From: Blasia pusilla | Lineage: Eukaryota | NCBI GenBank assembly: GCA_050084515.1 | Contig: CM114271.1 | Location: 2,852,001-2,916,000 of the forward strand | Direction of reading: 5' to 3' | DNA: 64,000 nucleotides | In this document: positions 4,101 through 64,000 of the stretch, one piece after another | How positions within the stretch are numbered: the stretch's first letter is position 1 | Layout of the letters: every line of letters begins with the position of its first letter | Notes under the pieces: generated by a model | What the model saw: only the letters and a program-made list of their open reading frames with translations | Told to the model about the DNA's origin: nothing | Database searches by the model: none | Translations under genes and position numbers: made by a program

Positions 4101-4185
4101 CTGCTCTCTTACACCCATTGTGCTCGCAATTCTCCAAGTACGGAGATGCTCCAAGACCACTCCATCGTCGTGAATATCTTGGCCA

Positions 4186-7092
<2,907 letters not shown>

Positions 7093-7197
7093 GGCCACCT
7101 ATCCTCTCCTCATCGGCCTTTGGATCTAAGGACTTGCCATCGAAGTCTCAGCAGTATGGCTCTTCATAGCCAATAAGCCCAAATAGGCTTACGCGTG

Positions 7198-8520: not shown

Positions 8521-9029
8521 TTTACCTATAGGATCATTGAAAGATCGGCGTGTCGCTCGACAACTCAATGCGGATCCCTGGACCCTTCAGCATACTCAAA
8601 TCATGCATAGTAAATGAAAAATAGCTCCTATAACTCCTAAGGAACAAATATATCCGAAGTCGCTCTCCTCTTGTCAACTTAGGGTTCATTTCTAGCTCCC
8701 AAGTCTCCATCGTGACCACGGTAGGACTCTCTAGTGCGAGTGTCCGTGGTTGCTATGGTACAACCCCATCTTGCACAACATACCTCGACTGCTCACCTAC
8801 AGCCAACTGCAAAATCAGATCTCCTCCACGTGTAGTACACTGAACCACGCTCGATGTTGTGGCTATCATCTCCCGGCGTACCTGCAAAATATCCCAAGAA
8901 ATCTAAGGGTGTCTCTCTCGATCACCCCCAGTGTGTAGATCTCCTTGGGTCTCACCCCCAGCCATTGTCTCAACCGTCTCGTTAGGCATGGGGCTCACTA
9001 ACCCAATAGTTGTAATGTGTCGCAACCTC

Positions 9030-9990: not shown

Positions 9991-10439
9991 TCCTCTAGGA
10001 TGCACCACACAATCGGAGTGGTGTCCAAATGGATCATAGTAGCACTCCTTTCTACCTCGGGTTCCTCTGACCTGTCACGCTCTGGTGCAAACGCCTCGCT
10101 CCATGCAATTTGCACATGCTTAGCGACTAAGCGTCAAAGCTCCTTAGTCGAGCCCCAAAGCGGTACCTCTCCTCCACGGAATGATGCGGCTACCATGATA
10201 CTCCTCTCCATAGAAATGTTAGGAATGGGAGTGTCCTCTACATGGACATGTCCCTCAATCAAATCACTAGGCCAAGTGATGGCGCTGCTAAATGCTGCTA
10301 AGGTCGGCATCTCTCCTAGCCCTTGTTCGATCACTCCTCCGATGAATGGAGCAGATAATAAGCTAAGGGGCCCATCACCTGACTACCATCATTGTCTGAA
10401 GGATGGAAACTCTTCCCAGTAATCCAGGGAAAACCCCAT

Positions 10440-10720
10440 CGGGTACAACACTACTCCACCAACCAAGACGTCGTAGGACTCTCCATCGCTCTCCATCGGT
10501 CCTTGGCTTGGACCATAGACTTATCTATAGGATGTCTCGGGCGAATCCTCACCACGATCTCATGTCGGGTGATATACTATGTGGTACTCGCTCCACCCAA
10601 GGATGTCTGTATCCGGAATAGACAACGCTCTACATCGGCTCTCATCAAGCCCAATTCTCTAAATGTCGATTTCCCCAACATCAGGGATTGCGCTCTTGAA
10701 TCCAACAAGACGCAATGCAA
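10440..10720 (-). pseudogene. Aspartic protease, gypsy copy 1
   Basis: VLLDSRAQSLMLG (decayed LLDSGA) followed by FRIQTSLGG and a downstream YDVLVG-like motif. Confidence 0.7.
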
Positions 10721-11559
10721 TCTAAAAACTCTAGCTCCTGGACTCACCAATTGGAAGACCTCTCCCGGATTATCTAGCAATACAACACCAAGAGCAACCA
10801 TGGCACGCTCTATCGCGGGTCTAGTGGGCATCTCCGCCATCCTAGCAGCCACAGCCTGCCATGAATCTGACGTGGACGGCCCGAGCATAAGCTCCAAGGG
10901 CAAGTCCATCACCTCCTTTGGAATAAACCCTTAATGTGACGTAGGAACACCAACTCCATGCTTTCATAGCATAGCGGGCAGCCTAAAAACCTCAGAGGGC
11001 GTACCTCCCAATGTCATAACATCGAAAGCAGAAAATAAAGGAGCGCGGTACACAACAGTGACCGCCCCCAATAATATGCTCGACACATACTCCTCCTGAG
11101 CATAAGCAATAGGAGTCATTGCACTTGCTTCTCCCATTTCCCTTCATGCTTGCACACCAACAACATCACCAACTCTTTGAAAACTCTAATCAGTATCCAT
11201 CAATGGGGTCCTCATCGCCTCGGACAACGTGAAAGACTGAGGAAGCCTGGTATGTTTCCTGGATTCCCCTCGCTGTGGATCCAACTCTGCCACTACTCCA
11301 CACGTAACAACTACGGCGGTCTCCATCTGGGCAACCCCGCACATCCAACCAAGATCCTCCATATCTCTGGCTACTCCATAAGACTTTGATGCCATGGATC
11401 TGGCATCGAGTAACCTCAATGCCATAACGGCAATCTGCTATCTGAGCAGCCATCCCAACCTCATGCCCGACGTCTCCCTTGACACATCTAGGTGGTGGGA
11501 CTCTACCTCCTCCACGGGCAACTCCAGCTCCTTGTCCCCCAACGGGAGCACCTGGTGCT

Positions 11560-12911
11560 CGACCTCATGGCCCACCCAGACTGGCAACTCGCTCTAATGC
11601 CCTCTCTGGCCCTCGATCCGGATGTAACTCAAGGTGTACGCTGAAACACTTGGCATGTGTCTTACCATACCTCTGATAATAGTCACACTGATAACCTCCT
11701 GGTGTAGCACCATCTCCTCCTCCATGTTGAGGCACGCGTCCATGACCGTGACGAGTGCAATCCCGCTGGTGATGGGCTCCACCATATTCCCAACAAGTTA
11801 TCGTAGGCGGCTGCTGTTGAGCCGCATATGAAGATGCATGTCTCTGTGGCACGGCCTCACGGTATCCTCCCTGAGCTCGTGGTACAACATACCAATCTCG
11901 GAATCCACGTTGCTGCACTGGATTTAGGGTGACTACTCTCGCCTACAACCCATGGTGGCTAGGCTCTCCTCCGCCATGTTCCGCTCAATGTTCTCAACGG
12001 TCCTAAAAACAGCTCTCAACGTGGGTGAGGTATTCATAAGAAGCACCTCCTCCCGCACCTGTGTGCGCAGGATTTGATCCAACATTGCGTACCATGATTG
12101 GAAAGCTTGGGCCTATATCACACCCTGAGTGACGTTAATTAACATGCGCAAGCGAGTGTAGGCCTCACACAAACTCTCACCTGGGCACCTTTGAAGTCGT
12201 GGATGCTCCGCAACTTCTTCGTCCGTACCCCTTGGTAGCTTGTCCGTAACTCAACAAAGAACTCAACCATGAGGTTGAACCTGGGATGAACCCGACTGGA
12301 CGGTGCAACTACTCCAGTGCGAGTTACCCCTCCTACAACATCACTGGTGGAAGAAGCCTCTCCTAGCTCCTCCTCCTCATCGAGAAACGACTTTGTCCAT
12401 GAGACATAGTGTGGTTCATAGTAGAGTCACCATGCCTGAATCTCATGGGCATATCGGCGAGAGAACCCATGGGAATCGTCCATCGGTGCCCCCTCTAGGT
12501 GCTGGAATATACCGTTCCATGTTATAAACGGGCTTAACTCTTTGGAGTTCCTAGCCCGTTTGAGTTACACCAACTCCTAAACTCCGTAACGGAGTCATGT
12601 AACTCTATCGTGCCTATAGCACCCAAAAACCTACGCGGTCCTCTACCCCAGTCATCCATCTCGTACGCCCAAATGGTAGGACCACTCAATATGTGTTGCG
12701 AATCACTAACAGACTCCTCTACAATCTCCCCCTCGTCTGAAGATGACAAAGAAGGAGATCGAGGTGGTCTCTCTCGTGGAGATCCTTGAAACCTCGTGCC
12801 ACTCCGCGTGAACCCTGTAGAGCTAACCTCACGCCCACCACCTATCCTCTCAAGGACTCGAAAGGACGTCGTGATGACCCTCGTATCCCTCTCAACCTCG
12901 CGAGTAATCAC
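11560..12911 (-). pseudogene. Gag with zinc-knuckle remnants, gypsy copy 1
   Basis: TCWEYGGAHHQRDC (CWSCGGAHHQRDC in copy 2) and a second C-x2-C/H-x4-C-like motif CDYYQRYGKTHAKC; ESLCEAYTRLRMLI capsid-like segment. Confidence 0.75.
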
Positions 12912-13093
12912 TCAATCACTCCAACTATCATGCGGCACTCAATCTACACTCTCTCTCATTGAGAAGTGTGCTATGCAGCAACAAGCGGCATGGTGCAGCA
13001 AATCAACTACTGTCATATTATCTCATGAACAACACATACCCTCAACTCTGGACATCCCTCTCAGGTCTATGTCCCCTAAACCCATACATCAAC

Positions 13094-14598
13094 CACTAGA
13101 AGGAAACACCCTTCTTAGCCACTAGATTACACTACTATAGTAAGTTGAAAAGAATATTTAGTCATTGGTGACTAGCATTTACAACTACAAAAATCTAGTA
13201 TCAAAGGACTCATTATTTAGGATTTCTAATTATAAAGTGACACGTTGGCAACATGACATGGCAATATTTACAACTAGGAAATATCCTAGTCATCAACATG
13301 ATCGGTATGACATGGAAACTATACTATGCTGACAATGAATTACTTTCGATGTGCCACGTCGCTCTGCCTAGTTATTAGTGAGACTATTTCTAGTTGTAAT
13401 TTAGTTATTTAAGATTGAAAATCGCTATAACAAAAGAAAGTGGTTACACTTGTAATGGTTTGATATGTCCATATGGTGGATTTTTCATGATGCGAGACTA
13501 ATATTAGTTTTATATTATGTAGTATTTTTTTATTACATTCATGTGTTGACACATGTCAAAATCATGATCAAACATGTGTATTGTTGATACTACAGTGAAC
13601 ACTAGTGATAAGGAGTGTTATCACTACATGTAGTTATATCAAGAACGCATAGTTATTTTTATGACTGGTTGAAGTACTAGTGATAGTGTGTGTTACCACT
13701 ACATCTAGTAGTATCAAGAACACATAGTTATTTTTATGACTAGTTGAAGTTGTATAATAAGTCTTCTGACTAGTGATAGTGGTAGTATTATTGTGATTTC
13801 AGTTGTACAATAGTTAACAAATGAAGAATAAGATATATTGTGGGGACTTTTCTTCTTGTAAGAGAATCCATAGAATAAGAAATTGTATTGTGAGATCATA
13901 AAAAAATACCCCTCACAATTGGGAAATTTCCATTTCCATTTTAGAAACCAGGTTGATGGTATAAGTATTGGTGACTGATACTTTGTTGGCTTGGAATCAC
14001 TTTAGGAATGTTGAGAGACTCTTGCATCTCTTGTATTATAGGAGGAGCTCCCCGCTCCTTCTTCTACTTGAAAATATCCAAAATTGAAAAAACAAAATCA
14101 AGATTTAGTCATATTCCAAGATGTAAGAACTCCTTGTGAAACCTAAATTCTGCCAACAAAGAAACCAGGAAGACTCAATGGAGAATATACTCACAAACAC
14201 ATTCTTTTCGCCCAAATATCCTCGTCTCCCATTAGGGTTGGGGTTTTCCACCTTAGATATGTTGGCCTTCATTCATTCAGATTCCAGTTGTCCCGCGGGT
14301 GACACCCAATACGACTTCAATGACTGCCATGTTTTTGGATTCACATCTAGAGGACAAGCGCATTCTTTAGATACCCCTTTTTCTCTCCAATACTTTTTCA
14401 AGCGGGCCCGCTCTTGTTTCATCAGATCTTGGAGAGAAGTACGCCAAAACCTATCACTCAACTCACCACCCACATACTCGTAACGATTGTCAATCTCTCT
14501 ACGGATGGTTCTCAAGTCTTGCTCGGGTTGTTTACTAACATCAACTATACTAAGGTCCAAGTGGCAATGTACACTTGCCCTGACACCATCATGCCATT
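13094..14598. mobile_element. CACTA (En/Spm) transposon fragment inserted in the 5' region of gypsy copy 1
   Basis: CACTAGAAGGAAA at 13094 plus subterminal repeats; segment absent from copy 2; gypsy sequence resumes at 14599 (aacgatgctctc). Confidence 0.75.
14273..14560 (-). pseudogene. Ptta/En/Spm (TnpA-like) fragment
   Basis: RARLKKYW...CPLDVNPKTWQSLKSYWVSPAGQLESE fits the P-x-V-x4-W-x2-L-x2-YW-x-SP-x6-SE pattern of CACTA accessory proteins. Confidence 0.65.
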
Positions 14599-15537
14599 AA
14601 CGATGCTCTCTGTATCAGCACAAAACCCAATATCCCCAAATAACTCTCAATACCCAAAATTTCCTAACACGTGGAGGGAAAAAGACTAGAATGGGTAACC
14701 TGAATAAATTTCGATCTCTCCTCAGCAACAGAAAACCTCGACCCCAACTCAATCATGAAGACAAACTCCTCCAAGTAGCATGTCGTACTCCCCTAGTACT
14801 TACGATGCTCAAATCTCCTCCTTGTGCGGTGCGGGTCCAGTGTATGGTGCGGCACTAATGGCACGGAATCGCTACAAATGGCACGGAACTCGAGAATGGG
14901 GTACGGCACTCAATGGCATACCCTCCTCAATAGCAACACACGCTCTGCTCCAATGATGGTGCGGCTCCACGATCGAGATGGTGTGGTGCGGCCACGAGCA
15001 ACATGGCGTGGAAATCGGCGGCGCGTTGCAGCTATGGGCATCACAACACGGTACTCGATCATTGTTGAGCGGCTACCGCACGGTAGCGCGGTGGCTATGG
15101 CAGCTTGCTTAATCAACCACAACTTTGTGCTCCAAACTCAAAAATTGTGCATCGTTTCTTCAGCAACATACACAGCTTCTCAATCTACGACCTCATTAAA
15201 TTGGTTTCTTCATTCAACCTTCCAATAAAAATTGACAGGGATTGTCATGCAGCCCTTCAATGTGCACTCCTACGAAAAATTTGGCAGCGCTTCTACGATG
15301 CCAAATTTGGAAATCCGCCCCCATATTCAATCTTTAAAGCAACTTTGGCAGCGCTTATGCGTGCCACTCTTCCACACAAAAAATCAGCAAAGAAAGAGCA
15401 AAATCAAGTGGCTCTTGCTCCGGTGAGCACTCCTATGAGCCCTTGAATGGGGAACACGGTCCCCAACATGCACCAATAGCGAGTGACTAGTGAGCTCTTC
15501 CATTGAAACTCTCTCACTTACTCATTCTCTCTTTGTC

Positions 15538-16046
15538 AAATCAAGTAGATCTCACATCAATATCTCACACCAAACTCTCTATGGTGTGCACTCTCTCTCA
15601 TGTCAAACCAAACCCACTCTCCTAATAAGAGGCTTGGGTTATACACACAAGGCAAACAAGACCATAGCTCCGCCGCCTCATGCCAAGAGGTTCAACAAAG
15701 AGAGAATGAGCTCTGAAGCTATCTCTCTTGGAGGTATACCCCCTTCCCTCTCCTAAGCTCTCTCCTTGTCAACCTATGCTCGCAGGTCACATCCTTGGCT
15801 CTCGACCTCCTGTAGCAAGTCAAGGGCCACTTCCCAAAAAGAAAAGTCAACTATATTCTAAATGGGAACTGACCCAAAATAATAAGTTTCTATATATGGC
15901 TCCAAATGAGCTAAAACGAAGGGGAAACTTACTCTCTCAGGTTACCCGGGGCCTCAGCAGGTCATCCTTGACCTCTTGAGGCTATCCTCCAACATCTCCA
16001 AAGGGGCTCTACTAGATCGTGCCGATCTATCCTAACAGTCGTGACA
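15538..16046 (-). repeat. Terminal repeat A (5' end) of gypsy copy 1
   Basis: AAATCAAG...TGTCAAACCAAACCCACTCTCCTAAT...CTATCCTAA...GTGACA recurs at 47694 (partial), 57581, 58090 and 58890. Confidence 0.87.
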
Positions 16047-16699
16047 ACGACCAAACATGCATCAGGGTTAGTTCCTAGTTCAAGGACTTGAGTGAGTAGA
16101 GAGGGAGAGTGTCCTCGCCTCTTGCAAATGAGAGTTCAAATGCATCTTGAAGTGTGGACCCGCATTTCATGTGTCCCATCTTGACTCACGATTTGGCATC
16201 TTGTGGTTGTCTTACCTCCCTTTGTGTTTCATGACTAGTCTCGTGGTGTCTCGTCCATCTTGACTACTCACATGTTCCTTGCTTCTTGCCCTCGATTCGA
16301 CACTTGGATTCAAGGTCTCAAACCTTGCTTGCCTTGTCTTTGTCCTCGCGCGTAGCTACGCCTCTTTCTCACCTAAGATCAATCACATGACACATGCGCG
16401 CTGTCACCTAGGGTTTAGTCTTATGGCTAGTTCTATTTCCCTTCCTAATCTCGAGACCAGCAAGCATAGGTTTAAATTTTGGTGGATCACACAAGGGTCT
16501 TCCTCCTTGGACCTGCGATCATGACTCATTTCCTAAATCCTCACTAGTGTGGACACCATAAACTTAGCTATTTGTGACAAAGGGAGGGAGGGAGGGATGG
16601 AGGGCTGATAGACGGAAAATGGATTGAGGGAGGGATTAGGATCAGACAATAGATGGTTGGAAGACCAAAAAATGAGGAGCAAATAGATGTTTTTGTTAA

Positions 16700-45420: not shown

Positions 45421-48356
45421 TTCGAGTTCTAGCAGAGGGGACCAGAGGTGATGTTGGTTCGGTCCTTGAGCCGCGTACCATGTACAGCTGTGAGATGGAG
45501 CATATATTCTTAAAGAGTTGTCCCAAGTAAGGAGGAGAATGCTTTGCCGTTGTGTAAGACCTTATTTGTGGAGATACATTTTGACGTGAATTTGACATGA
45601 GTGACTGAAGCAACTCCATTCGCCTGTTCTGGCCACAACAGTGTTGTGGAACTTTGTAAATTTAAGCGCTTTCGTGCGCTACGTAGCAATTTGTATTCGA
45701 CGAAAGTACTACTACGCAGTCTCCGCACACGATATCGACACGGTCTTGAATGGAGCGTGCATATATCACCTACTCTCTACCATGCGTAATGTTCAGATGG
45801 CCGAATGTAAGTTGAATATTCAGGATGTCAACGAGACGCTGACTCTAGATCACAGTTTTGTAAATTCAAAGGAACCGTCTTCCAACCTTTTGCTTGGCTA
45901 CCCGCCTTGGCGCGGCGATCTGTTGGATTCGTATTTGAATGTGTCAATCAACACTCTACAGGGACGTTTAGAGACGAAAAAATGTTTTGCCACCCACAGC
46001 CTGAAAGTCTTCGAATAAGGCATGGATGAATCACAATCCTAAGTCAGCAGTACGCTAGTGACTTGGAAAACTACACCTAGAACCGGAATTTCTCATAGTG
46101 AAGAAGCAGCATAAATTCTCAACTTATTCGAGGACAGTTCCATAGTCAACCGAGGTGAAGCACCGTTCATATCAACTGTGGGAAATGGACATCGCTATTG
46201 GATTCTAACCCATTGTCCAAAATGTTGTGAAACTTGTCTGGAGTCTGCGTTCGGAGACGAATTCATTGTCACAGGATTATTGCTCTACATGAAATCGCTG
46301 CACGAGAGCAATACTAACAAAAATTAACTTTGACTTACATTCTACCATAGCGTCCAGCTTGGCGACGCTGTTAGGATAAGGAATCATATCTCATCTAGAT
46401 TGAGGCACCATTATCGGCGATCCGATCACTGATTTTCTCGAAAGAGGATATTCTCTATTCCGATAGGAGCTAAAGATTTGGCGCGTAGAGGATGAGGCAA
46501 AGGTTGGCGACTGTTTCCCGAAAGTAGGTACACTCCCCTTGTAGCCGGCAGTAGTCATTTTGGTTTCGAAGGTGGTTCACGGGCAGTTTCTCTTCCTTAA
46601 AAAACAAGAAAAAAATAACTATTTTGAGGAGTTTGAAAACCAAACAGGAATTTCGGATCTCTTCAAACTTCTGGGCAGGGGATGAAGTTTGTATCGGTCC
46701 ATATTATCCAAAACGAATCCAAATGGGGCATTTCTACGGTATCCAAAGGTCCAACGTGGAAGATATAGTTTGAGATAGTTATCTCTAGTTCTCATATAGC
46801 CATGGGAAGAACTCTTTCCCCAAAAATAATCTCTCGAGTAACTTTTGACTCGGTTAACAAAGACCAAAATAGGAAATTTGTCAGAAACGATGTTTCTAAT
46901 GCAATGAATCTATCATCGATCTGATCCGAGACCTTGGGACAAAGTTATATCCAAGTAGTCTTTTGATCTTCTATGTGGTCGACGCGGTAGAACTCTACCT
47001 CTCGACTAACTACGATGTTACATATACCATAATACTTTTTTGGATATTTCTTTTCTCATAGAAGTGAAGTCCTTCTTGAAAAGAGAAGTCCTTTGGAGCT
47101 TTGGAAAATAATAAGTTCATGTTTGTTAAGATACGAGTGAAGTTTGTGTATATGGATGTTTGTTTCTATAAGATTGGACCTCTTCTAGCGTGTTTAGGGT
47201 TTAGGGTTAGGATATATACACATCGAGAAAAACACCATTGCATCGTAGAGTTCAACCTCAACTCCCCCTCACTAACCAGCAAAGAGATTCAAACCTTGAA
47301 TTTTGCAGTGGAAGTCTTGGGTCAAGTCTCAAAGACCAAGCTAGCTGCGAGTTCCATAGGCCAGTTCAATAGATGTAAAATGTTGAATAGGTTCAAGTCC
47401 CCTAAAGTATGTTTTTTCTTCTCAAGAAGCCTCTTCCCCAAGCCTTCACCAATCTCCCCAAGTAGTTCATCTAAAAAATGTTCGACCATTAATTTCTCAA
47501 AATGTGTTGAGAATGATGTCACAACTTCGTTAGCCGACAAGTAGACTTCTACCCCGTCGACGACATAGAGAATCAATGGGAGTTTTTGGTGTAATTTTGT
47601 CTTGAGATATCAAACAAAGTTGACGACTAGATTGTTGCATAGGGAACATTTTTAATGGCGATTCCTCTTCTTTGCTATTTCTGGCCAAATGATAAAGAGA
47701 GAATGAGGTCTCAAGCTCCCTCTCCTTGAGGTATACCTCCTTCCTTCTCCCAAGCTCTCTCCCCATTAACCTATGCTCGCAGGTCACCTCCTTGGCTCTT
47801 GACCTGTTGTAGCGGGTCAAGGGCCACTTCCCAAAGTAGAAAGTCAACTCTACCAAACATGGAAACTTACCAAAATAATAAGTTTCTCTATATGGCTCCA
47901 AATGAGCCGAAACGAAGGGCGAACCTGCTCTCTCACGTTCCCTGATACCTCAACAGGTAACCTCGACCTCCTAAGCCTGTCCTCCTCTACTCGCAAAGGC
48001 GCTCTATCTTATCTCTCCAATCTATCCTAAAAAGTCGTGACAACTATCGTGCGCATACACATTGCTACACAATATATATAGATGTTCGACAAACATACAC
48101 ACAAACACACACGATCCCATGCTAACTCATGGCATTCAAACAACGAGACAAGAAGTACCAAAATATCTCCAATCGCCTTCCTAGCTCGTGGTTAGGTCCC
48201 TCTAACTGCAGATAGTCATCTATCTCTACCTACCATGACATACATCTCTTGGACGCTAAGAGAAAAAAGATCGGGTGCTCATATGGCCTCATCGTTACTC
48301 ACCTTCTTGTCATCCATGTCACACACACAAGTCAGAATCTAGAACTACCTACCCTA

Positions 48357-48500: not shown

Positions 48501-51500
48501 GCCTGCAGGAACTACTGCTAAGCTCAGATCAACTGTACGGTCAATGTTCGGAAGATGACGTGGCGCACAGTTACGCATATAGTCCTTCCAAACCATACCA
48601 TCACGTCCCTCCAATAAGAGAACCAGGATGACAAAATCTCACGCACCCTCAAGATAGTGCGCCTTGCAGTCACGTTGTGGGTGCCGTCTACTGCAAGTAG
48701 ACAAAGTCTCCCTGATGAATATTCTGGATAATAGGTCGATAACCACCTCCCCGAATAGTCGCATACCTCAACGTATCTTGATGTTGCGCAATCGCCAAGT
48801 TCTCAAAAGCCATGGGCATCACACTCCAAAACAACTCAACCCTTTGAGAACATGCTCGCATCCATACATCAGGGTCATGAAGGTTCAACACCTCACCAAC
48901 ATCTCGACCAATGGCCGCAGGTCATTCCGACTCTCGGCCATAAAGAAGCAAATACGGTGAGAAAGATGCTAAGGATGTCTGCATGTTGAATCTGCATCCC
49001 ATCGCCAACCACAGCAACTAGAGGTCCCAATCTCCTAGGTGACCTCTCTGCAAGCCATAATTGCGGAATCCTCTCTTCATCGTCTCCACAACCCTCTCTG
49101 CTAGTCCATCCGCCACAGGATGATCTCGCGAAGTGGTGCGGTGGTCGATCAGCGCCTGATCACGCAAGGCCTGAAACTCCCCACGAAACTCCGTACCCTA
49201 GTTTGTCAACACCTCAATTGGTGCGCACTAATGACTTAGCACTCGATCTAGGAAGGCATTCGCTACTCCCTTACTTTCTTTGTCAGGCAATGCAACCAAC
49301 TCTATCTATTTCGAGAAGTGCTCAACCATCACCAACACATAACGACTATGGCACTCCGTCAAAGGCAAAGGTCCTACAAAATCCAAACTCCATCTATAAC
49401 CTAAACCCATGATCGAAAGTGGATGCAACTATGGATTTGGAGCATTGAACAATGCTCGGACTCGATCACACACCATGCACCTGGCAACAAACTGCCGAAT
49501 GTCAATCTGCATGCGTCGCCACCAATACTGTATCTAGAGCATGTTGTACGTCCGCTTCACTCCAAAATGACCCAACTCCTCGTGGGCATGAGGCACCAAA
49601 CGTGCTCTCTGCAAAGGATGAGGCACTACATGTACTCTACCATCCTCCCACACTCGCAACACATGTGTCCTCTCCCACCGAAACCGTCTGGCTCACTGTA
49701 GGATCCAATTCCGCTCTCTAGCACCCATTGTGCTCGCGACGCTACCAATACGCAAGTACTCCAAGACCACTCCATTGTCTTGGCCACATGTCGTCTCCTC
49801 ACGGACCTCTGGATCTAAGGACTCTCCATCAGACCTCGCCATCGAAGTCTCAGCTTTCTAGCTCTCCATAGCCTACAAGCCCAAATAGGCTGACGTGTGC
49901 CATCCTGGCGCCAACTTCTCATCACTCTCACCATGCCAACGAGCTCCACTCGCATCTCGCTGACTCGAACATGGGTTATGGCTGAAACTATTGGCATCCT
50001 CGTTGAGCGTCCCAGTCTATGCACCACTTGGAAGTCATACTCTTGCAACAAAAGAGCCCACCTCGCAAGCTTTCTGTAAGCTTGTCAGAATCCATCAACC
50101 ACTTAAGTGGTTGATGATTAGTAATGATGGTAAAGGGGTTTCGGAATAGATAACATCTAAAATGTGCGATAGCCCACACCGTAGCCAAGCACTCACCCTC
50201 ATACACGCTATATTTTTCCTCTACAGCGTTGTTCAATCGACTAGCGTAAGCCACCACGAATTCCCTATCATCATTGTCATGCTAGGTGTGCATTGCTCCA
50301 AGCCCCAACATGCTCCAATTGCTATGCAATTGGAAAGGGCGCCCCTTGATCGGTCTCCTCAATATAGGCGCGGACATCAATCTGTCCTTGAGCAGCTGAA
50401 ATGCTCTCTCTTGCTCATCCCCTCAATGCCACTCCTGATCCATCTTGGTCAACAAGGTTAGCGGCTTCGCAATGAAACTAGAATCCTTGACGTATCGTCG
50501 ATAGAAGTTTTCCAATCCCATGAATGCACAAACTCCACTTACACCTGTAGGGCGTGAAATAGCCTCTACCTTTATCTGCTGCATACCAAGGACCCCTGGA
50601 TATATAGTATGACCCAAGTATTCAACTTGGTCGTAGAAGAACTTGCACTTGCTTGGATGTAGCTTCAGCCCATGTAACTACAATCGTCAAAACACCTCCT
50701 CTAGATGTCGCTCATGCTCCTCAACCGTGGCGCTAAAGACAGCGATGTCATCAATATAACACCTAGCAAACTCCAAACTTGCCAAGATCCTATCCATTAC
50801 CCTCTGAAACTCAGCCGGGGCATTCTTTAACCCGAATGGTAAGAACCACCACTAGTACAAACAATCCTTCCGGTGAGGATCGATGCCCCAAAATGCCGTC
50901 TTCTGCCTGTCCTCCAATCTGATAGGCAGCTGATGGTATCCGGCTCGTAAATCCAATGAATTGAAGACCTTTGCATGCCCAATCGCATCAAAGATCTCCT
51001 CAGGGGTGGGCATGGCATACCTATTGGACTTTGTCTGCCGATTGATAGGTCCATAATCTCCACACATCCGCCTATCCGTCCAATTTCCATGCACATCCTT
51101 CTTGGCGGGCATGATAGTGGCAGATGCATCCTCTCCATCCGACATCTCCACTAGTCCTGGTCCAACCAAGTCATGCTCCTACTATGAATCAAAGCCCTCT
51201 CCATGTTAGTGTACCTGTAGGGTCGTCAAAAGATCGGTGTGTCACTTGAAAACTCAATGCGGATCCCTGGACCCTTTAGCGTACCCAAATCCTACATGCT
51301 AAATGCAAAACAACTCCTATAACTCCTCAGGAACGGATGTATCCAGCGCCCCTCTCCTCCTATCAACTTAGGGCCCATGTCTAGCTCCCAAGTCTCCATT
51401 GTGACTATGGTAGGACTCTCTGGCGTGGGTGCAGGTGGTTGTTATGGTGCAACCCTGTCTCAGACAACACAACTCGACTGCTCTCTCCTGCAACCAACGT

Positions 51501-51719
51501 ACTGCAAAATTTGTCTCCATGTGTAGTACCCGCAAAGACGCTCAATGTTGTGGCTACCATCTCCTGGAGTACCTGCAAAACATCCCAAGAATTCCAAGGG
51601 TTTCTCTCCCGATCACCCCTAGTGTGTTGATCTCCTCGGGTCTCGCCCCCAGCCACTACCTCAACGGTCTCGGTAAGCATGGGGCTCACCAATACAATAG
51701 TTGTGATGTGTCGTATCCT

Positions 51720-52700
51720 CAAACGACGCTGCTCAGCTACTCCTAAGCTGAAAATCCATATCAAGCAGTTCACGTCCATCACCTGACCCAAGATATGACG
51801 TCGTGGTGCCTCTAATAGCAACAATTGTGCTGTCACTCCTGTGGGGAAATCCCATCGCTCGCTCTCGCTCATTGACATAGGGCCCCACCAACCTCTGTAC
51901 CTGGTCATCCCAAACAAGCCAGGTCCGGCCTCCTTGAATGCATATGAAGCGGGAAAACTCACAAATATAGGAAAGGCTGCCCGTGGCATGCCAATCTTGT
52001 TGACCACAATCAACGGCAGTCGATCATTGTGCCTCAGTGCCTATGATTGACGGCCCGGATCCAATATGGAATCCACCAACAACTAGGAGGGGCGCTCCAC
52101 TCGCGTATATGCCCTCCGCAACACCTCGTGTAGGACCAAGTTGGTCCACCAAAGACATGGGCGGTGTGCTCTAGAACCTACACTCACCTTATCTAACAAT
52201 ATTGTTGGGCCAATCCATGCGTGCACATGATGTGCACTCATCACCACGCGAGACCTCGAATTGCCCAAAATTGGCACATTCTCCAGAATGTATGCTAGAG
52301 AACGAGATTGATGCTCCTGCAAGTGTCGGAAAATCCGCATCATCTCCCAAAAAAACTTGGACAGCTTGTCAACTAACCTACTACCTTGTACAACACTCGA
52401 TTGGCCCTAACACGACCAACTAGCAATGACCAGATCTATGGCCCCTACCCGCTCCAAGTCCTACGCCCCCAACAATGAAATGTCCCCCGCTAGAGAGCTC
52501 TGGTATCCTTGGACAGTGGACTGAGACAACTAGTTGGGAAAAAGGAGGCGTAACAGCGCCACATGGTAAAGTGAAGCGCGCCTCACAACATCATCAATCT
52601 CCGCATACAAGTACTCCTCTATGCGTACTCCTGCCTGCAAAAAAACAGCTAACCTAGTGCTAATCCCTCCAAAGAGATCCAACACCCAAATACCCTCCTC
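51720..52700 (-). pseudogene. C5 DNA methyltransferase domain, copy 2
   Basis: VLDLFGGIS..YLYAEID; IDLVIASWSC*GQS; YILENVPILG; GSRAHRPCLWWTNL; FPTGVTA; RRHILGQVMDVNCL. Confidence 0.88.
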
Positions 52701-55700
52701 TAGGATGCACCACACAATCGGGGTGGTTTCCAAAGGGGTCATAATAGCACTCCTTGCTACCTTGCGTTCCTCTGACCCGTCACGCTCTGGTGCAAATATC
52801 TCGCTCCACGTGGTCTGCACATGCTCAATGGCTAAGCGTTGAAGCTCCTCAATTGAGCCCCAAAGCGGCACCTCTCCTCCATGGACTGATGCGGATACCA
52901 TGACACTCCTCTCCATAGAAATGTCAAGAACGGGAGTGTCCTTTCCATGGACGTGTCCCTCAATCAAATCACTAGGCCAAGTGATGGCACTGCTAATTGC
53001 TACTAAGGTTGCAATCTCTCCTGACCGGATCTCTATCATTGCATCTGTGAATCAAACGGGTAATGAGCTAAGGCGCCCAGCACCTGACTGCCATCTTGGT
53101 CTGTAAGATGGCAGTGAGTAATCCAAGGAAAGCCCCATGGGATACAACACTGCTCCATCAACCAAGACATCGAAGGACTCTGCATTAGTCACTATTGCCT
53201 TGGCTCGCACCATGGACTCATCTGTAGGATGTCCCTGGCGAATCCTTAGCACAACCTCCTGTCGGGTAATATACTATGTGGTACTCGCTCCATCCAAGGA
53301 TGTTTGTATCCGGAATGGACAACGCTCCACATCGGCCTTTGTCACGTCCAAACCTCTGAATGCCGCTTTCCCCAACACCAAGGGTTGCACCCCTAAATCC
53401 AAAAGACGAGCTACGGACTAAAAGCTCTACTTCCTAGACTCACAAACTGGAAGACCTCGCCCCGGTTATCCAAAAAAATAACACTAGAAGAAGCCATGGC
53501 ACGCTCTATTGCGGGTATCTCCGCCATCCTAGCAACCGCAGCCTACCATGAATCTGACGTGGACGGACCGAGCATAAGCTCCAAGAGTAGGTCCATCACC
53601 TCCTATGCAATCACCTTTGAATGTGATGCAAGAACTCCAACTCCACGCTCACACAACGTAGCGGCCAGCCAGAAAACCTCGGCGGGTGTACCTCCCAACG
53701 TCATAACATCGGAAGCAAAAAATAAAGGAGGGAAGAACACAACGGTGGCCGCCCCCAACAACGTGCTCGACATATGCCATTCCTAAGCATCAACAATAGG
53801 AGCAACACACTCGCTTCTCCCATCGTCCTCCGTGCCTGCACACCAACAATATCACCAAATCTCTGAGAACTCTGATTAGGACCGATCGATGGGATTCTCA
53901 TCGCCTCAGACAACGTGAAGGACTGAGGAATCCTGGTCTGTTTCCTAGCTTCTCCTCGCTATGGATCCAACTCTGCGGTTGCTCCACGCGTAACAACTGC
54001 GGAGGCCTCCATCTGGGCAACCCCACACATCGAACCATAATCCTCCATTCTTTTGGCGTCTCCATAAGACATCGATGCCACGGATCCGGCATCAAGTAAC
54101 CTCAATGCCATAGCGGCATCTGATGTATCTGAGCAACCATCCCAACCTCATGCCCGGTGTCTTCCTCGACGCGTCTAGGTGGTGGGACTCTACCTCCTCC
54201 ACGCGCAACTCCACCACCCCCTGGAGCAAATCCAACTCTTTGTCCCCCAACGGTATCACCTGGTGCATGACCTCTAGGCCCACTTGGACCGAAAACTTGC
54301 TCTGGTGCCCTCTCTGGCTCTCAATCCAAACGTAACTCATGGTGCAAGATAAAACATCTGGCGCGCGTGTGACCATACCTCTGAAAATAGTCACACCGAT
54401 AACCTCCTGGTGCAACACCATCTCCTCCTCCATGCTGAGGCACGCAACGATGATTGTGACCAGTGCAATCGCGCTGATGATGGGCTCCACCACATGACCA
54501 ACAAGTAATCATAGGTGGCAGCTGCTGAGCCACATATGAAGGCGCAGGTTTTTGTGGCACGACCTCTCGGTATCCTTTGTAAGCTTGTGATGCCATAGAC
54601 CTATCTCGGAATCCACGTTGCTGCATTGGTGGTGTAGGCAATCGTGACTTCTCTCCCCCACAACCCATGGTGGCTACGGTCTCCTCCGCCATGTTGCGCT
54701 CAATGTTCTCGGCGGTCCTAAAAGCATCTCTCAACGTAGGGGAGGTGTTCATAAGAAGCAACCCCTCTTGCACACATGTCCAGTCGAGTATCGTGTACCA
54801 TATCTAGATAGTCATATTCTGTCACCCCTTGAATGACGTTAATCAATCGGCGCAAGCGAGTGTAGGCCTCACGCAAACTCTAACTCAGGTGCCTCTGGAA
54901 GTCATGGATGCTCCGTAACTTCTCCGTCCGCACCCCTTATTAGCTCGCCCTCAACTCAGCCAAGAACTCAACCAAGGGATTGAACCTAGGACGAACTCGA
55001 CTGAACGATGCAACTGCTCTAGTACGAGTCACCCCTCCTACAACATCAATGGTGGAGGAACCCTCTTCTGACTCCTCCTCCTTATCTGGAAACGGCTCAA
55101 TCCATGACACATAGTGCCCATGGGTCATAGTAGAGTCTTCAGGCCTCAATCTCATTGGCATATCTTTGCGAGAATCCATGGTAATTGTCCATGGATGCCC
55201 CCTCTAAATACTGGAACATTCCATTCCATGCTGTAAATGGGTTGAACTCTCTAAAGTTCCTAGCCCGCAGTGAGTCACACCAACTCTTAAACTCCACAAT
55301 GAAGTCGTGTAACTCTTTAGTGCCTATAGCACTCGAAAACCTACGCGGTCCTCTACCCGGGTCGTCCATCTCGTACGCCTAATTGGTAGGACCACTAAAT
55401 GTGTGCGGTGATCCAGTAACAACCTCCTCTACACTCTCCCCCTTGTCTGAAGATGACACAAAAGGAGATCGAGGTGGTCTCTCACGTGGAGACTCTTGAA
55501 ACCTCGCACCACTCCGGGTAAACCCTCTAGAGCTACTCTCAAGTCCACCACCTCGCCTCTCAAAGTCCCGGAAGGACGCGGTGATATCGATGACCCTTGT
55601 GCCCGTCTCACACGATCACTCTCAACCTTCCGAGTAATCACGCAATCACCCAATCTAACATGCGGTACTCAAGCGACACTCTCTCATTGAGACATGTGAT

Positions 55701-57452: not shown

Positions 57453-58089
57453 TGTCGTGCGCATACACATTGCTACACAACATACATCGCTGTCACCAAA
57501 CACACATACAAACACGCACGATCCCATGCTAAATCATGGCATCCAAACAAGGAGACAAGAAATATCAAAATATCTCCAATAAAATAAAATCCAATCTCTC
57601 TCACAACACCATAGTTCTCACATGTGTGCACTCTCACATATCTCTCTCAATGTCAAACCAAACCCACTCTTCTAATGAGAGGTTTGGATTACACTCACAA
57701 GGCAAGGGACCATAACTCCGCCGCCTCGCGCCAAGAGGTTCAACAAAGAGAGAATGAGCTCTCAAGCTCTCTCTCCTTGAGGTATACCCCTCCCCTCTCC
57801 CAAACTCTCTCCATGTTAATATATGCTCCCAATTCTACCTTGGCTCTTGACCTGATGTAGGAGGTCAAGAGCCACTTACCAAAAATAGAAAGGCGACCAT
57901 ATGCTCAAAATGGTACTTATCTAAAATAGTAAGTTTCTCAATATGGTTCCAAATGAGCTCGAAGGGAAAATCTGCTCTCTCAAGTTTCGTGGGGCCTCAA
58001 TAGGTCATCCTCAACCTCTTGAGTCTGTCCTCCACTACTCGCGAAGACGCTCTACTAGATCTCACCGATCTATCCTAAAAGACATGACA
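57453..58089 (-). mobile_element. Solo A-B unit of the DNMT-gypsy family inserted into repeat A1 of copy 2
   Basis: TGTCG...TGACA flanked by CTCT/CTCT; B 57453-57580, A 57581-58089; removing it restores ccaatctctctcaacacc. Confidence 0.8.
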
Positions 58090-58778
58090 CTCTCAACACC
58101 ATAACTCTCAAATGTGTGCACTCTTACATGTCTCTCTCAATGTCAAATCAAATCCACTCTCCTAATAAGAGTCTTGGGTTACACTCCCAAGGCAAGCAAG
58201 ACCATAGCTGCGCCACCTCATGTCAAGAGGTTCAACAAAGAGAGAATAAGCTCTCAAGCTTTGTCTCCTTGAGGTATATCCCCTTCCCTCTCCCAAGGTA
58301 TTTCCTCAATAACCTATGCTTGCAGGTCACCTCCTTGGCTCTTGACCAGTTATAGCGGGTCAAAGGCCTCTTCCCAAAGTGGAAAGTCAACTCTACCAAA
58401 CATGGAAACTTACCCAAAATAGCAAGTTTCTCTATATGGCTCCAAATGAGCCGAAACGACGGGTGAACCTGCTCTCTAAGGTTTCCCAAGACCTCACTAG
58501 GTCATCCTCGACCTCTTGAGCTTGTCTTCCTCTACTTGCGGAGGCACACTACGAGTTCTCTCCGATCTACCCTAAAAAATCGTGACAAAGTCAATGATCA
58601 TATGGTAATATGTACACACATGTTACCGTTTGGATGGCTATTTTGGGGGGAAGAGCCTTTTGGCTCCTACCAAGGCTATAAGAGAGGGAGAGATGGCTTT
58701 CCCTGACCATATTTCTCATGTTGGGCCTTAGGAGCACCTCTCTTGCATGTGGATGTAGGAACTAGGGTGCTAGCATCT

Positions 58779-61700
58779 TGTCGTGTGCATACACATCACT
58801 GTCATTAAATGCACACACAAACACACACGATCCCATACTAACTCATAGCATCAACACATCGAGATGATAAGTACCAAAATATTTCCAATAAATCAAGTGA
58901 TACTCTCAACTACAATGTCTCCACGATGCACACAACTCTATCTCTCATTCTCATGTCAAACCAAGCCCACTCTCCTAATGAGAGACTTGGATTACACACA
59001 TAACGCAAGCATGACCATAGCTTTGCCGCCTCATGTCAATAGGTTCAATAAAAAGAGAATGAGCTCTAAAGTTCCCTCTCTTTGGGTATACCCCCTTACC
59101 TCGCCCAAACTCTCTCCACGGTAACCTATGCTCGCAGGTCACCTCCTTGGCTCTTGGTTTGATGTAGGAGTTCAGGTCACACTTCCCAAAATAGAAAGTC
59201 AACAATATTCAAAATGATAATATATCTGAAATAGTAAGTTTCTCTATACGGCTCCAAATGAGGTGAAATGAAGGGGAAACCTACTCTCTCACATTACACG
59301 TGGCCTAAGCAAGTCATCATCGACCTCTTGAGGATGTCCTCTAGTATCCCCGAAGGTGCTTTACTAGATCTCGTCGATCTATCCTAAAAGATGTGACAAT
59401 TTTCATGCATATATACACCGCTACACAACATTCACCAAATGCACACACAAACACACATGGCATTCACACATCAAGGCAATAAGTACCAAAATATCTCCAA
59501 TCGCCCTCTAGCTAGTGGTTAGGTCCCTCTAACTGCACATAGCCATCTATCCCTACCTACCATGACATACATCTCTATGACGCTAAGAATAAATTTTCGG
59601 GTGCTCATGTAACCCCATCGTTAGTCGCCTCCTTGTCATCCATATCATAGACACAAGTCAAAATCTAGAACTGCATAGTATCTACTTTATGTACATGTAG
59701 GCACATCCATTGTCCCCGAGGAACCCTAGTGCGAGGTTCCATCATACATGCCATTCCCATCCTCTCGAACATCTATCACAAACTAGCATAGTGGTTGCAC
59801 CATAGGCCGAACCACACAAAATATAGGGCAAGCCTGTAGGAGCTCATATCAATTTTACTGTAAATGTTAGGAAGGTAACGTGGCGCATAATTACGCACAT
59901 GGTCCTTCCAAACTATATCATCGCATCCCTCCAATTAATAAGAGAACATTGGATGGCAAAACATTACGCACTTTCAAGATAGTGCGTCTTGCAATCATAT
60001 CCAACATTGTGAGTGGTGTCTGCTGCAAGTAGACATAGTCTCCTTGATGAAACCTCTGGATAATCTTTCGATAACCACATCCCCCAATAGTCACATACCT
60101 CAAAGTATCCCAATGTTGTGCAATTGCCAAGTTCTCAAACGCCATGGGTATCACTCTTCAAAACAACGGAACCCTCTGAGAACATGCTTGCATTCATACA
60201 TTAAGGTCATCAAGGTTCAATACCTCGCCAACATCTCGATAAATGGCTGTAGGTAAATCAGCCTCTTAGCCATAAAGCATCAAGTACGGTGGGAAAGACG
60301 CTAAGGATGCATGCTTGCTAAATCTATATCCCATCGCCAACCACGGAAATTGGAGATCGCAATCTCCTACGTGACCTTTTTGCAAGCCAAACTTGCGTGA
60401 ACCTCTCTTCACGGCTTGCACAACCCTCTCTGCAGGTCCATCCATCTCATGATGATCTCGCGAAGTGGTGTAGTGGTCAACCAGCGTCTGATCACTCAAG
60501 GCCTGAAACTCCCCACAAAACTTTGTATCCTGGTCTATCAACACCTCAACTGGTGCATCATAATGACTCAACATATGATCACTACACTTCTCCCTCACTC
60601 GCCTTGTCAGGAAATGCAACCAAATCTATCCACTTTGAGAAGTACTCGACCATCACCAATACATAACAACTATGGTGCTATGTCAAAGATTCAGGTCTTG
60701 CAAAATCCAAACTTCATCTATAACCTAAATTCATAATCAGCAGTAGGTGCAACTGTAGAGCAAGAGCATTGAATGATGCCCAGACCCAATCACACGCCAT
60801 GCAGCTAGCAACAAATTGTTGAACATCAGTCTGCAAGCCTCGCCACCAATACCGTATCTACAACAAGTTGGACATCTGATTGACTCCAAAGTGACCTAAC
60901 TCCTCGTGGGCATGTTGCACCAAACATGCTCTTTGCCAAGGATGAGGCACTACATGTACTCTACCACCTCCCAAACTTGCAATACATGTGTCCCCTCATA
61001 CCAAAACCGTCTAGCTTGATGTAGGCTCCGATCACGCTCTCTAGCACCCTTTGTGCTCGCGTCGCTGCCAATAGGTAGGTACTCCAAGACTACTCCATCC
61101 TCGTGAATATCTTGGCCATGTGTCACCTCTTGACCAACCTTTGGATCTAAGGACTCTCCATCAGACCTCTCCATCAAAGTCTCAGCATCCTAAATGCTCC
61201 AAGCCTCAACATGCTCAAATATGTATGCAACTCAAAAGGATTCCCCTTGATCTGTCGCGACCCTCATAACCAAACAAACACCAAATAGGCGCTCAAACAG
61301 AACATCAAAACTCTAGTGGACTCACGCTACGATGATCACGCTTTGGAGAGGCTTTTGGAAAGGTCTCTTGGAAAAGTCCAAGAGACAAAACGCAGAAGAG
61401 TTGTGAGTTTCATGCGTTTGTGGTCGCTACCAGGAAACCTTGACCAAAGGCGTTTGGTCCAAGTTTCCTGGCGCTCTTATTTTTCTCAAATGCATCTAAG
61501 GGCTAAACGTTGTGTTCCAAAACACAGTCAAAATCCCCAAATATTAGTCGTGTTCCAAAATTGGTTCTCACCTCTTCGGCAACCAACCTTCCAAGACTCA
61601 ACTCATCTCAAGTCTTAAAACCCTTGGCATAACGTCGATAGAAGCTCCCCAATCCCATGAATGTACAAACTCGACTCACATATGTAGGGCGTGGAACGCG

Positions 61701-64000
61701 TGAGATAGCCTCTACGTTCTTCTGCTGAACATCAAGGCTACTTGGGTATATATATATTGTATGATCCAAGTACTCAATCTGGTCGTAGAAGAACTTGCAC
61801 AAGCCTGGATGTACCTTCAGCCCATGTAAGAACAATCGTCAAAACACCTCCTCCTGATGTCCTTCATGCTCCTCAACCGTGATTCTAAAGACTAAGATGT
61901 CATTAATATAATACCTAGCAAAATACATACCCGCCAAGATCCGTTCCATGACCCTCTAAAATTCTTCCGGGGAGTTCTTTAACCCAGATGGGAAGAACCG
62001 CCATTCGTACAAATAATCCTTTCCGTGAGGATTGATGTCCCAAAATGTCATCTTTTGCCTGTCTTTCAATCTAATAAGCAACTGATAATATCCAGCTCAA
62101 AGATTGAATGAACTTAAGATCTTTGCATGCCCAATAGCATCAAAGATCTCCTCAAGAGTAGGCATAGCATACCTATTGGACTTCATTTGCCAATGGATAG
62201 GTCGGTATTCTCCACACATCTGCCTATCCGTCCAGAAGCCGTGCACATCCTTCTAGGCGGGCATGAAAGTAGCAGATGCATACTCTCCATGCAACATCTC
62301 CACTAGTCCTACTCCAACCAAGTCCTGGCTCTTACTCTCAATCAGGGCCCTCTCCATATCGGTGTACCTGTAGGATCGTCGAAAGATCGGCGGATTCTTG
62401 GACCCTTCAACATACCCAAATCATGCATGCTAAATGAAAAACAACTAGCTCCTATAACTTCTAAGGAACTAGTGTATCCAACGCTGCTCTCCTCTTGTCA
62501 ACTTAAGCCCCATATTTGGCTCTCAAGTCTCCATTGTGACTATGGTAAGACTCTCACGTGTGGGTATCGATAGTTGCTATGGTGCAACCCCATCTCGGAC
62601 AACAAAACTTGAATACTCACCTACAACCAACTCCAAACTCTCATCTCCTTGACCTCTAGTATGAGGAACCACGCTCTATGCTATGGCTACCATCTCCCGG
62701 CATACCTGAAAAAAATCCCAAGAAGTCCAAGGGTATCTCTCTCAATTACCATTGATATGTCGATCTCCTCAGATCTCGCCCCCAACCATTTCTTGAACCA
62801 TCTTGGTAGGCATGGGCTCACCAACGCAACAACTATGATCAATTGTGACATCATCAACGTGGCTCAGCTACTCCTAAGCTAATGATCCATGTGAAGAAGT
62901 TTAGGTCCATCGCCTAACCCAAGACATAATGTCATCCCAAACCAAGCTAGTACCGACCTTCTTATATGCATAGAAAGGCGGAAAAACTCACAAAAGTGGG
63001 AAAGGCTGCCCGTGGCATGCCAATCCTATTAACCATAGTCAACGACGGTCGATCATCATCCCTCATTTCTTGTGATCGATGACTTGGATCTAGAATAGAA
63101 TCCACCAACAAATGGAAGGGGCTTTCCACTCTTGCATACGCCCTCCGCAACACTTCATGTGGCACCGAGTTGGTCCACCATAGACATCGGAAATATGCTC
63201 ATAAACCTACATTTTCCGCATCCAAAAATATTGTTGGGCCGATCCAGGCTCACATCTTATGTGCACTTATCACCACCCGTAACCTCGAGTTGCCCAAAAT
63301 TGGCACATTCTCCAAAATTTATGTTGGAGAACATGATTGATGTTCTTGCAAGTGTCGCAAGATCCGCATCATCTCCCAAAATAATCCACCTACCACTACC
63401 TTATCCATCACTTGATTGGCCTTGACATGGCCAACCAGCAATGGCCAAATCAATGGTCTCTACCCGCTCCAAGTCTTGCACCCCCATCAACAAAATGTCC
63501 CTCTGTAGGAAACTCTCGTACCATTATACGCCGGATGTAGACAACAAGTCAAGAAAACGGAAGCATAATTGCACCATATGTCGAAGTGAAATTTGTCTTG
63601 TTACGTCATCAAGCTCCACATACAAGTACTGATGCATACACACTCCTGCCTCCAAAACAACAACCAACCAGGTGCCGATCCCTCCAAAGAGATCCAACAC
63701 TCCAATATCCTCCTCTAGGATGCGCCACACTCTCTACCTCCTCGACTTACCAAGTGACAAACCTCTCCCCGGATATCCAACAAAACAATACCCGGAAAAA
63801 CCATGACACGCTCTATCGCGGGTCTGGCGGGCATCTCCACCATCCTAGCAGTTGTAACCTACCATGAATCTGAGGTGGATGGCCCGAGCATAGGCTCCAC
63901 GAGTAGGTCTATCACGTCCTCTGCAACCATCTCTCAACATGACAAAGGAACACCAACTCCACGCTCGCATGGCATAGCGGCCATACAAAAAATCCCCATG
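58779..64000 (-). mobile_element. DNMT-carrying gypsy copy 3 (3' part: internal-B-A-B); runs off the window
   Basis: B2 58779-58889, A2 58890-59398, B1 59401-59501, PHD/INT 59690-61000, RT 61620-62360, DNMT 62880-63710; RH and PR regions deleted. Confidence 0.88.
62880..63710 (-). pseudogene. C5 DNA methyltransferase domain, copy 3 (catalytic motif intact)
   Basis: VLDLFGGIGT; YLYVELD; IDLAIAGWPCQGQS (about 63410-63455); ILENVPILG; WWTNSVP; motif IX region deleted. Confidence 0.88.

Follow-up and report, generated by a model that had tools for sequence, protein, structure and literature searches.

The window, as the whole 64-kb stretch of DNA analysed here is called, contains three related elements on the minus strand. 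Taken together with the mechanism proposed below, they are very probably three inactivated insertions of a high-copy Ty3/Gypsy family whose Pol carries a selected methyltransferase domain of the DNMT3 type. A single gag-pol frame of this family encodes gag, protease, the DNMT3-type methyltransferase, reverse transcriptase (RT), RNase H, integrase and a PHD finger. A Gypsy element with DNMT3 has already been published from Klebsormidium, so the arrangement is known but rare. All three copies in the window are pseudogenes, inactive for any of the functions proposed. By self-comparison they are 77-85% identical to each other at the DNA level, and copy 1 is split by unrelated DNA at 4172-7093 and 13092-14595. 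Their extents and parts are as follows (A2 is an HMM built from 13 relatives; numbers with P or L designate relatives; A, x and B are blocks of the terminal repeats).

2441..16048, minus strand: copy 1, whole; from blastn against copy 2 (81-85% identity), with block A at the 5' end (16048-15592) and block B at the 3' end (2568-2441)
2755..2898, minus strand: copy 1 PHD finger; the His is kept and the Cys4-His-Cys3 pattern complete, with one stop
8834..10118, minus strand: copy 1 DNMT3-like domain; two frames with a break near 9535, 8 stops, motif IV WPC*; A2 profile positions 6-198 (E 5e-58) and 199-423 (E 5e-88)
about 58588-47694, minus strand: copy 2, whole; from self-comparison
57455..58588, minus strand: copy 2 5' terminal repeat blocks; A+x at 58588-58090 (an extra unit), A+x at 58089-57584 and B at 57583-57455; from read joints and loose ends
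53052..55700, minus strand: copy 2 gag and protease region; tblastn to P0008 residues 82-323, with a zinc knuckle CX2CX3HX4C at 54465-54503
51531..52820, minus strand: copy 2 DNMT3-like C5-methyltransferase domain; A2 profile positions 7-421 (E 3e-138), tblastn to P0008 residues 310-926
49988..51178, minus strand: copy 2 RT and RNase H; one frame with 6 stops, weak RVT_1 matches, RT_RNaseH at E 5.5e-20, YIDDI at 50758, 75% identity to the L050 RT
49018..49692, minus strand: copy 2 integrase (H2C2 zinc region and DDE core); Integrase_H2C2 at E 4.6e-4 on 49534-49692, tblastn to the rve regions of P0048, P0222 and P0031
48360..48494, minus strand: copy 2 PHD finger at the C-terminal end of Pol; PF00628 at E 3.2e-10 (40.3 bits against a cut-off of 24), with a zinc-binding His changed to Tyr
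47694..48176, minus strand: copy 2 3' side; block B at 48176-48047, then a truncated block A at 48044-47694
about 63993-58793, minus strand: copy 3, whole, running to the window end; from self-comparison
62652..63730, minus strand: copy 3 DNMT3-like domain; five pieces, 11 stops, IAGWPCQG intact; best A2 profile matches at E 4e-49 and 2e-35
58793..59500, minus strand: copy 3 3' side; B at 59500-59453, A+x at 59398-58900 and B at 58892-58793

On the motif map the parts follow each other as zinc knuckle, protease, DNMT motifs I-X, RT (YIDD), RNase H and integrase. This is the Pol order of Ty3/Gypsy elements (PR-RT-RNase H-IN), for which RT_RNaseH, RVT_1 and Integrase_H2C2 are matched in the window and the full set in open relatives; the gag-PR ORF of relative L002 also matches zf-CCHC (E 1.2e-7). 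The PHD finger, located 3' of the integrase, is a part of Pol that was absent from the original prediction, and it is also present in open relatives of both architectures described below. The DNMT region is damaged in each copy. Copy 1 has 8 stops and one frameshift there, copy 2 has 5 stops, all of them TAG, and an out-of-frame patch (51841-51930) that contains motif IX (ERERAMGFP). In copy 3 there are 11 stops and no fewer than four frame changes, and motif IX is lost in a deletion of about 100 bp.

Ordered C5-methyltransferase motifs between protease and RT had been claimed for all three copies, and they are indeed present on the minus strand. In copy 1 they read DLFGGIS, WPC*, GSRAHRPHLWCTNL, ERERAMGFP and LGQAMD, in copy 2 DLFGGIS, ILENVP, GSRAHRPCLWWTNL, ERERAMGFP (in the locally shifted frame) and LGQVMD, and in copy 3 DLFGGIG, IAGWPCQG, ILENVP and WWTNS. 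Motifs I (FxGxG), IV (PC), VI (ENV), VIII (RxR), IX and X are colinear in copies 1 and 2 and in the relatives. The catalytic Pro-Cys, predicted to be intact in copies 1 and 3, can be read in both (WPC* and IAGWPCQG), while motif IV of copy 2 is SWSC*, with SC in place of PC. Further departures are KNM for ENV in copy 1 and the missing motif IX of copy 3. When the A2 profile is run across all six frames of the window it matches three places only, with E values from 3e-138 to 2e-35, and these are the three copies. The ranges first given for the domains (9030-9990, 51720-52700 and 62880-63710) are slightly short; the domain is about 1.3 kb long in each copy.

At E <= 0.01, PF00145 matches none of nine window fragments, and at E <= 10 it matches one of ten (E 0.11). 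Among 12 relatives scanned, seven score above the Pfam cut-off, as do L002, L027 and L028, while the other five are missed; the matches in relatives cover only motifs IV-VI or I-VI. The null result on single window fragments indicates that intact relatives are needed for the domain to be recognised. A Protein Atlas look-up returned a PF00145 cluster with Streptophyta as the commonest phylum, but phage methylase clusters score equally, which makes this result uninformative.

Sequence profile and predicted fold together support the assignment of the inserted domain as a probable C5-methyltransferase of the DNMT3 type. A profile of 16 relatives (A1), searched against solved structures, finds DNMT3A as its best match (E 3.6e-17), followed by DNMT3B/3C (about 3e-14), plant DRM (5e-8 and 3.5e-6), M.HhaI (6e-6) and DNMT2 (2e-3). 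The alignment of A1 with DNMT3A spans motifs I-VIII, with a second stretch across IX-X. An AlphaFold model of an open relative (the L002 ORF with the A2 domain) has a pLDDT of 71.3 and a pTM of 0.72 and is confident for residues 7-350; the top-ranked Foldseek chains for this model are all DNMT3A/B/C, with E about 1e-19 and target-normalised TM of 0.79-0.82. The resemblance to DNMT3, at first suggested by the motifs, is thus borne out by both approaches. An identity as DRM was considered and rejected: the circularly permuted order of DRM (VI-X before I-V) is not found, and since the motifs run colinearly from I to X the domain is not a DRM. Compared with the catalytic domains of vertebrate DNMT3A/3B/3C, the order of motifs (I, IV, VI, VIII, IX, X) is the same and the VIII-IX region is likewise short. 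The element domain differs in being only about 20% identical, in lacking PWWP and ADD, in having PCQ rather than PCN at motif IV, and in being embedded in a retroelement polyprotein.

Relatives of the domain occur in other land plants. With a 130-aa frame of copy 1 as query, 31 proteins were found, with identities up to 68%. The named ones are from Marchantia polymorpha (at least nine gene models), Calypogeia fissa, Sphagnum fallax and S. jensenii, so that the extension to land plants, which the original prediction had made conditional on the host, holds for the family. The window copies are only 42-55% identical to the Marchantia proteins, which makes Marchantia an improbable host. Open relatives bear on the question of whether the domain could be an out-of-frame insertion, and in them it is continuous both with gag-PR and with the whole of Pol. 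The 943-aa protein P0008 has the zinc knuckle, the protease (LLDSGAQ) and all six DNMT motifs in one frame. P0048 (2188 aa) is one ORF with CCHC at 530, DNMT at 978-1226, RT at 1421, RNase H at 1638 and integrase at 1895-2061, and P0222 (2358 aa) is one ORF with protease at 663, DNMT at 953, RT at 1443, RNase H at 1660, integrase at 1925 and PHD at 2300.

Relatives are also encoded at 72 metagenome loci, which are mostly decayed. Both ERERAM and YxDD are found at 19 of these, in the same frame at 12, with a spacing between the two of exactly 1062 nt in 10 of the 12 and one to six stops in between; at the remaining seven of the 19 loci the distance differs by one to four bases. An open full-length Pol of the window's type is found at none of the 72 loci, where the longest DNMT-bearing ORFs are 438-458 aa, and no intact full-length copy within the window's own clade was seen among the relatives examined.

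The domain family is large and occurs in two architectures. A HMMER search with A2 of 1.84 billion cluster representatives (clusters at 50% identity) gave 10090 matches at E <= 1e-3, 2354 at <= 1e-10 and 472 at <= 1e-30, and the best 150 are all below 1e-65. Among 244 domain-bearing proteins that were fetched, 18 have the DNMT before the RT, as in the window, 85 have it after the RNase H, and 141 are without the RT part. The second arrangement, RT-RH-DNMT-IN-PHD, includes members from chlorophyte algae, namely the pol protein of Scenedesmus sp. PABB004 (KAF8056149.1) and MNEG_11595 of Monoraphidium neglectum. These gypsy elements share with the window family the same DNMT family (E < 1e-65 to A2), the type of RT and the C-terminal PHD finger, but their DNMT comes after the RNase H rather than before the RT. 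Other named matches to the domain are a Cymbomonas tetramitiformis protein, in which integrase domains alone are present, and one from Closterium that has Copia-type domains.

In a FastTree tree of 66 RT rows, the 55 rows of the RT-RH-DNMT-IN-PHD type make up one side of a branch (98*), and the window RT groups with two moss-type loci, L050 and L007, to which it is 75% identical. The DNMT domains were placed in a FastTree tree of 192 rows and an IQ-TREE quick tree of 50 rows. In these DNMT trees the two window copies that were included fall in a 12-row clade (100*) together with six Marchantia proteins, one Calypogeia protein, L002, L005 and P0008. It is only on the FastTree RT tree that the architectures are clearly separated, the deep backbone of the IQ-TREE quick DNMT tree not being resolved. 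A lineage with the DNMT before the RT is common to liverworts and mosses, and its sister lineage has the DNMT between RNase H and integrase.

Within the domain, dN/dS is 0.21-0.24 between sub-lineages (L002 compared with L005 or L003, and copy 1 of the window compared with L002, with dS close to saturation). It is higher, 0.47-0.48, between copies 1 and 2 of the window, and reaches 0.77 between two near-identical dead copies. Low values between lineages and higher ones between dead copies are the pattern expected of a domain that is under selection while the element is active and drifts after insertion. The methyltransferase is a stable, selected part of Pol and no passenger insertion. The window copies themselves show signs of decay. 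Their observed/expected ratio for CpG is 0.61-0.72, against 0.96-0.99 in the neighbouring psaE regions, and copy 2 has A or T where the reads have G or C at 740 places, the reverse being the case at 398. Both the CpG depletion and the A/T excess of copy 2 fit a decay by deamination of methyl-cytosine.

The family is abundant and transcribed. Whole-genome reads were aligned at 80% likeness, many of them in part, and the depths sum both orientations. Depth is 1500-3500 across most of the element and about 1750-1930 in the DNMT region, which is similar to gag, while in the unique flank it is about 0.2-2.9, a baseline of few reads. The copy number of the family is thus roughly of the order of a thousand, a value to be read with the thin baseline and the 80% likeness of the reads in mind. 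In three stranded RNA runs the whole element is covered 15-270-fold, with 34-72 in the DNMT bins. One strand is favoured by 10-90 to 1, and since the bias for psaE, a gene on the plus strand, goes the other way, the transcripts of the family are sense. At six of the listed indel places, including one in the DNMT region, copy 2 differs from between a quarter and most of the family reads, so these indels are not family-wide.

The mechanism we propose follows in part that of de Mendoza et al. (2018, PMC5890265), who suggested for the Klebsormidium element that a protease-released DNMT methylates the cDNA. The domain would be translated within Pol and freed by the protease of the element, as in their proposal. 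It may then act as a de novo methyltransferase, either on the new cDNA of the element, the substrate envisaged in the same paper, or on the DNA where the element integrates. Integration would be steered by the PHD finger of the integrase, which would read the state of a histone H3 tail. Acting together, DNMT and PHD finger would allow the element to set its own epigenetic state on arrival.

An active enzyme could instead work in trans, methylating host chromatin, competing elements or RNA, with an indirect benefit to the element such as a self-limiting copy number. Options of this kind are raised in the discussion of the 2018 paper (PMC5890265), and the transcription and great abundance of the family make an effect in trans plausible in scale. 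DNMT3-type folds are, however, DNA enzymes, and a place inside Pol puts the protein together with the cDNA, so we consider action in trans unlikely. Somewhat more doubtful again is the idea of a pseudo-enzyme, in which the domain would bind DNA or SAM and have a structural or tethering function within the pre-integration complex, without transferring methyl groups. Two observations speak for it. The domain of KnitGypsy-Dnmt3, the Klebsormidium element, gave no methylation in yeast, a result that its authors, in the published account, regard as inconclusive (PMC5890265). The residue before the catalytic Cys is Pro in 101 of the 190 aligned rows of the family but Glu in 77, and with motif IV reading EC rather than PC in these, the superfamily may include members that are not standard enzymes. 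Against this, the catalytic Cys itself is kept in 188 of the 190 rows, the window's clade has canonical PC, ENV and RAHR and a canonical FGG SAM loop, and the residues needed by the chemistry are exactly those kept by selection. An accidental likeness of the motifs, or a piece of a host DNMT3 gene that entered one ancestral copy and has been carried passively since, could draw on the lack of any significant Pfam match in the window fragments, but is refuted by the A2 matches at three places only (E 1e-35 to 1e-138), the 472 clusters at 50% identity that match at E <= 1e-30, the frame shared with Pol in open relatives, a dN/dS of about 0.2 and a read depth in the DNMT region like that of gag.

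Composite repeats form the ends of the elements, with a block A that measures about 450 bp together with x and a block B of about 130 bp. In the direction of the element, the order in copy 2 is [A-x][A-x]-B, coding region, B and a cut A; copy 1 has A, coding region and a cut B, and the 3' side of copy 3 reads coding region, B, A-x, B. According to read joints, the junction of B followed by A is common in the family, the 5' B is absent in many copies, and the outer edge of A abuts diverse sequence. The repeats do not form a clean LTR pair, and neither a PBS nor a target-site duplication was recognised in the window copies. The moss-type relatives L059, L038 and L005 have simple repeats, 307-342 bp long and separated by about 8.7 kb. 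The termini fit either of two layouts, an LTR of A-x-B plus one additional B that precedes the 3' LTR, or a split-repeat layout A-coding-B-A-B. The latter is that of DIRS elements, and KnitGypsy-Dnmt3 is said to have the same (PMC5890265).

Of the known systems, KnitGypsy-Dnmt3 of Klebsormidium nitens is described as having a DNMT3 within a Gypsy Pol and a Ka/Ks < 0.2 (de Mendoza et al. 2018, PMC5890265). It resembles the present family in its un-rearranged DNMT3-type domain in the Gypsy Pol ORF of a streptophyte, and in its purifying selection (about 0.2 here). Judged by the published description, its A-coding-B-A-B repeats are possibly of the same kind as the coding-B-A-B of copy 3. It is reported in few copies, in contrast to the order of a thousand found here, where there are also bryophyte relatives. 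The protein searches for relatives of the window domain yielded no Klebsormidium sequence. SymbioDIRS-Dnmt3 of Symbiodinium likewise has a DNMT3-type domain in a retrotransposon Pol and, according to the same paper, methylates CG de novo in yeast (PMC5890265). Unlike the present family, it is a DIRS element, has a tyrosine recombinase and resides in a dinoflagellate, and its authors see an independent acquisition. Chromoviruses, which are Ty3/Gypsy elements with a chromodomain on the integrase, likewise have a chromatin reader at the C-terminus of the integrase, the place taken here by a PHD finger. EpiLTRs (10.64898/2026.05.21.726589) are described as combining methyltransferases and a reader domain in one element, and differ from the present family, which is without an adenine methyltransferase; their cytosine methyltransferase is reported as the sister of DNMT4 and as separate from Gypsy-DNMT3. 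As far as their available text goes, the later papers (PMC12344493 and 10.64898/2026.05.21.726589) refer to streptophyte retrotransposon DNMT3 only by citing the 2018 work. A full-text search found no literature on DNMT-bearing gypsy elements in bryophytes or chlorophytes, although supplements may list copies, and a full-text search of main texts found none that names the DNMT-bearing Marchantia gene models.

Retrotransposons that bear the enzyme usually employed to silence them are a standing puzzle. The Gypsy case published so far, as described in PMC5890265, is from one charophyte alga, with few copies and an enzyme activity that was not demonstrated. New here are the bryophyte relatives, the PHD finger and the very high copy number with sense transcription in the host, together with a large sister architecture in which green algae are represented. 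An abundant, transcribed element in a clade with Marchantia polymorpha, Calypogeia and Sphagnum moves the question of transposon DNMTs to organisms in which knock-outs, methylomes and transposition assays are routine. It is conceivable, but in our view improbable in its full extent, that the gypsy elements with DNMT3 and PHD are one ancient green lineage with two domain orders, active in bryophyte-type genomes and with open copies in the host, in which the DNMT marks the cDNA of the element or the site where it lands, and the PHD finger picks the chromatin. If this were true, the element-borne enzyme would, at such copy number and expression, add measurably to the de novo methylation of the host, and Marchantia, with the same clade, would allow a direct genetic test. 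Copies embedded in Pol, annotated as hypothetical protein or cytosine methylase, can inflate the counts of DNMT3 genes in bryophyte and algal genomes.

Outside the three elements, a guess that the ORF at 28115-28543 belongs to a Helitron was dropped, as Pfam gave no support for it. The window also contains two copies of a three-exon nuclear psaE gene, by which its host is a green plant; a search with the exon for the N-terminus gave no match. The psaE introns are spliced in the RNA reads.

The DNMT domain family of the window copies also occurs in a second, larger architecture, RT-RNase H-DNMT-integrase-PHD. This order is carried by the database proteins P0039, P0053, P0054, P0079 and P0087 and by 80 others, and its members include the pol of Scenedesmus sp. 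PABB004 and one Monoraphidium protein. One protein of the set, P0102, contains a G-patch domain in addition. When 190 DNMT domains of the family are aligned, the Cys of motif IV is near-invariant and the motif reads Glu-Cys, not Pro-Cys, in 77 rows, including those of P0048 and P0222, open polyproteins in which the DNMT precedes the RT. A PHD finger ends Pol, after the integrase, in two of the window copies:

2755-2898, minus strand, PHD finger of copy 1
48360-48494, minus strand, PHD finger of copy 2

That of copy 2 has a Tyr in place of the zinc-binding His. The finger is also present in open relatives of both domain orders. Beyond Gypsy-type elements, a Copia-type polyprotein of Closterium sp. 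NIES-54 (P0243), which carries RVT_2, gag_pre-integrs and rve, scores against the family DNMT profile over the profile's C-terminal part (E 5e-30), and is consistent with the ‘LTR Copia’ DNMT3 named in PMC12344493.

The terminal repeats in the window are composite, being built from block A (~450 bp including x) and block B (~130 bp), and were located as follows:

57455-59500 and 47694-48176, composite terminal-repeat blocks, A + B
30853-31046, plus strand, isolated remnant, block B then part of block A

The blocks are ordered A-x-B / coding / B-A, with an additional A-x unit at 58588-58090, and the order is identical (A...B / coding / B-A) at L054, a metagenome locus encoding a relative. This layout resembles the A-coding-B-A-B drawn for DIRS elements and KnitGypsy-Dnmt3 in PMC5890265. 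The isolated remnant shows 87% (B) and 78% (A) identity to the blocks of copy 2, and has the look of a solo terminal repeat from the family to which copies 1-3 belong.

Between the 5' repeat and gag of copy 2 lies a leader:

56246-57187, stretch within the leader of copy 2

Here the family read depth falls from >1500 to 150-530, indicating that copies differ from one another much more over this stretch than over the coding region. Copy 1 is interrupted by an unrelated 2.9-kb insertion, within which a long microsatellite of (GA)n / (TC)n sequence sits at 6700-6990.

The window also carries two nuclear psaE genes (photosystem I subunit IV), ~23.5 kb apart:

20939-21900, plus strand, psaE copy one, three exons
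44346-45450, plus strand, psaE copy two, three exons

In RNA runs, the copy at 44346-45450 is highly expressed and its GT..AG introns are spliced.
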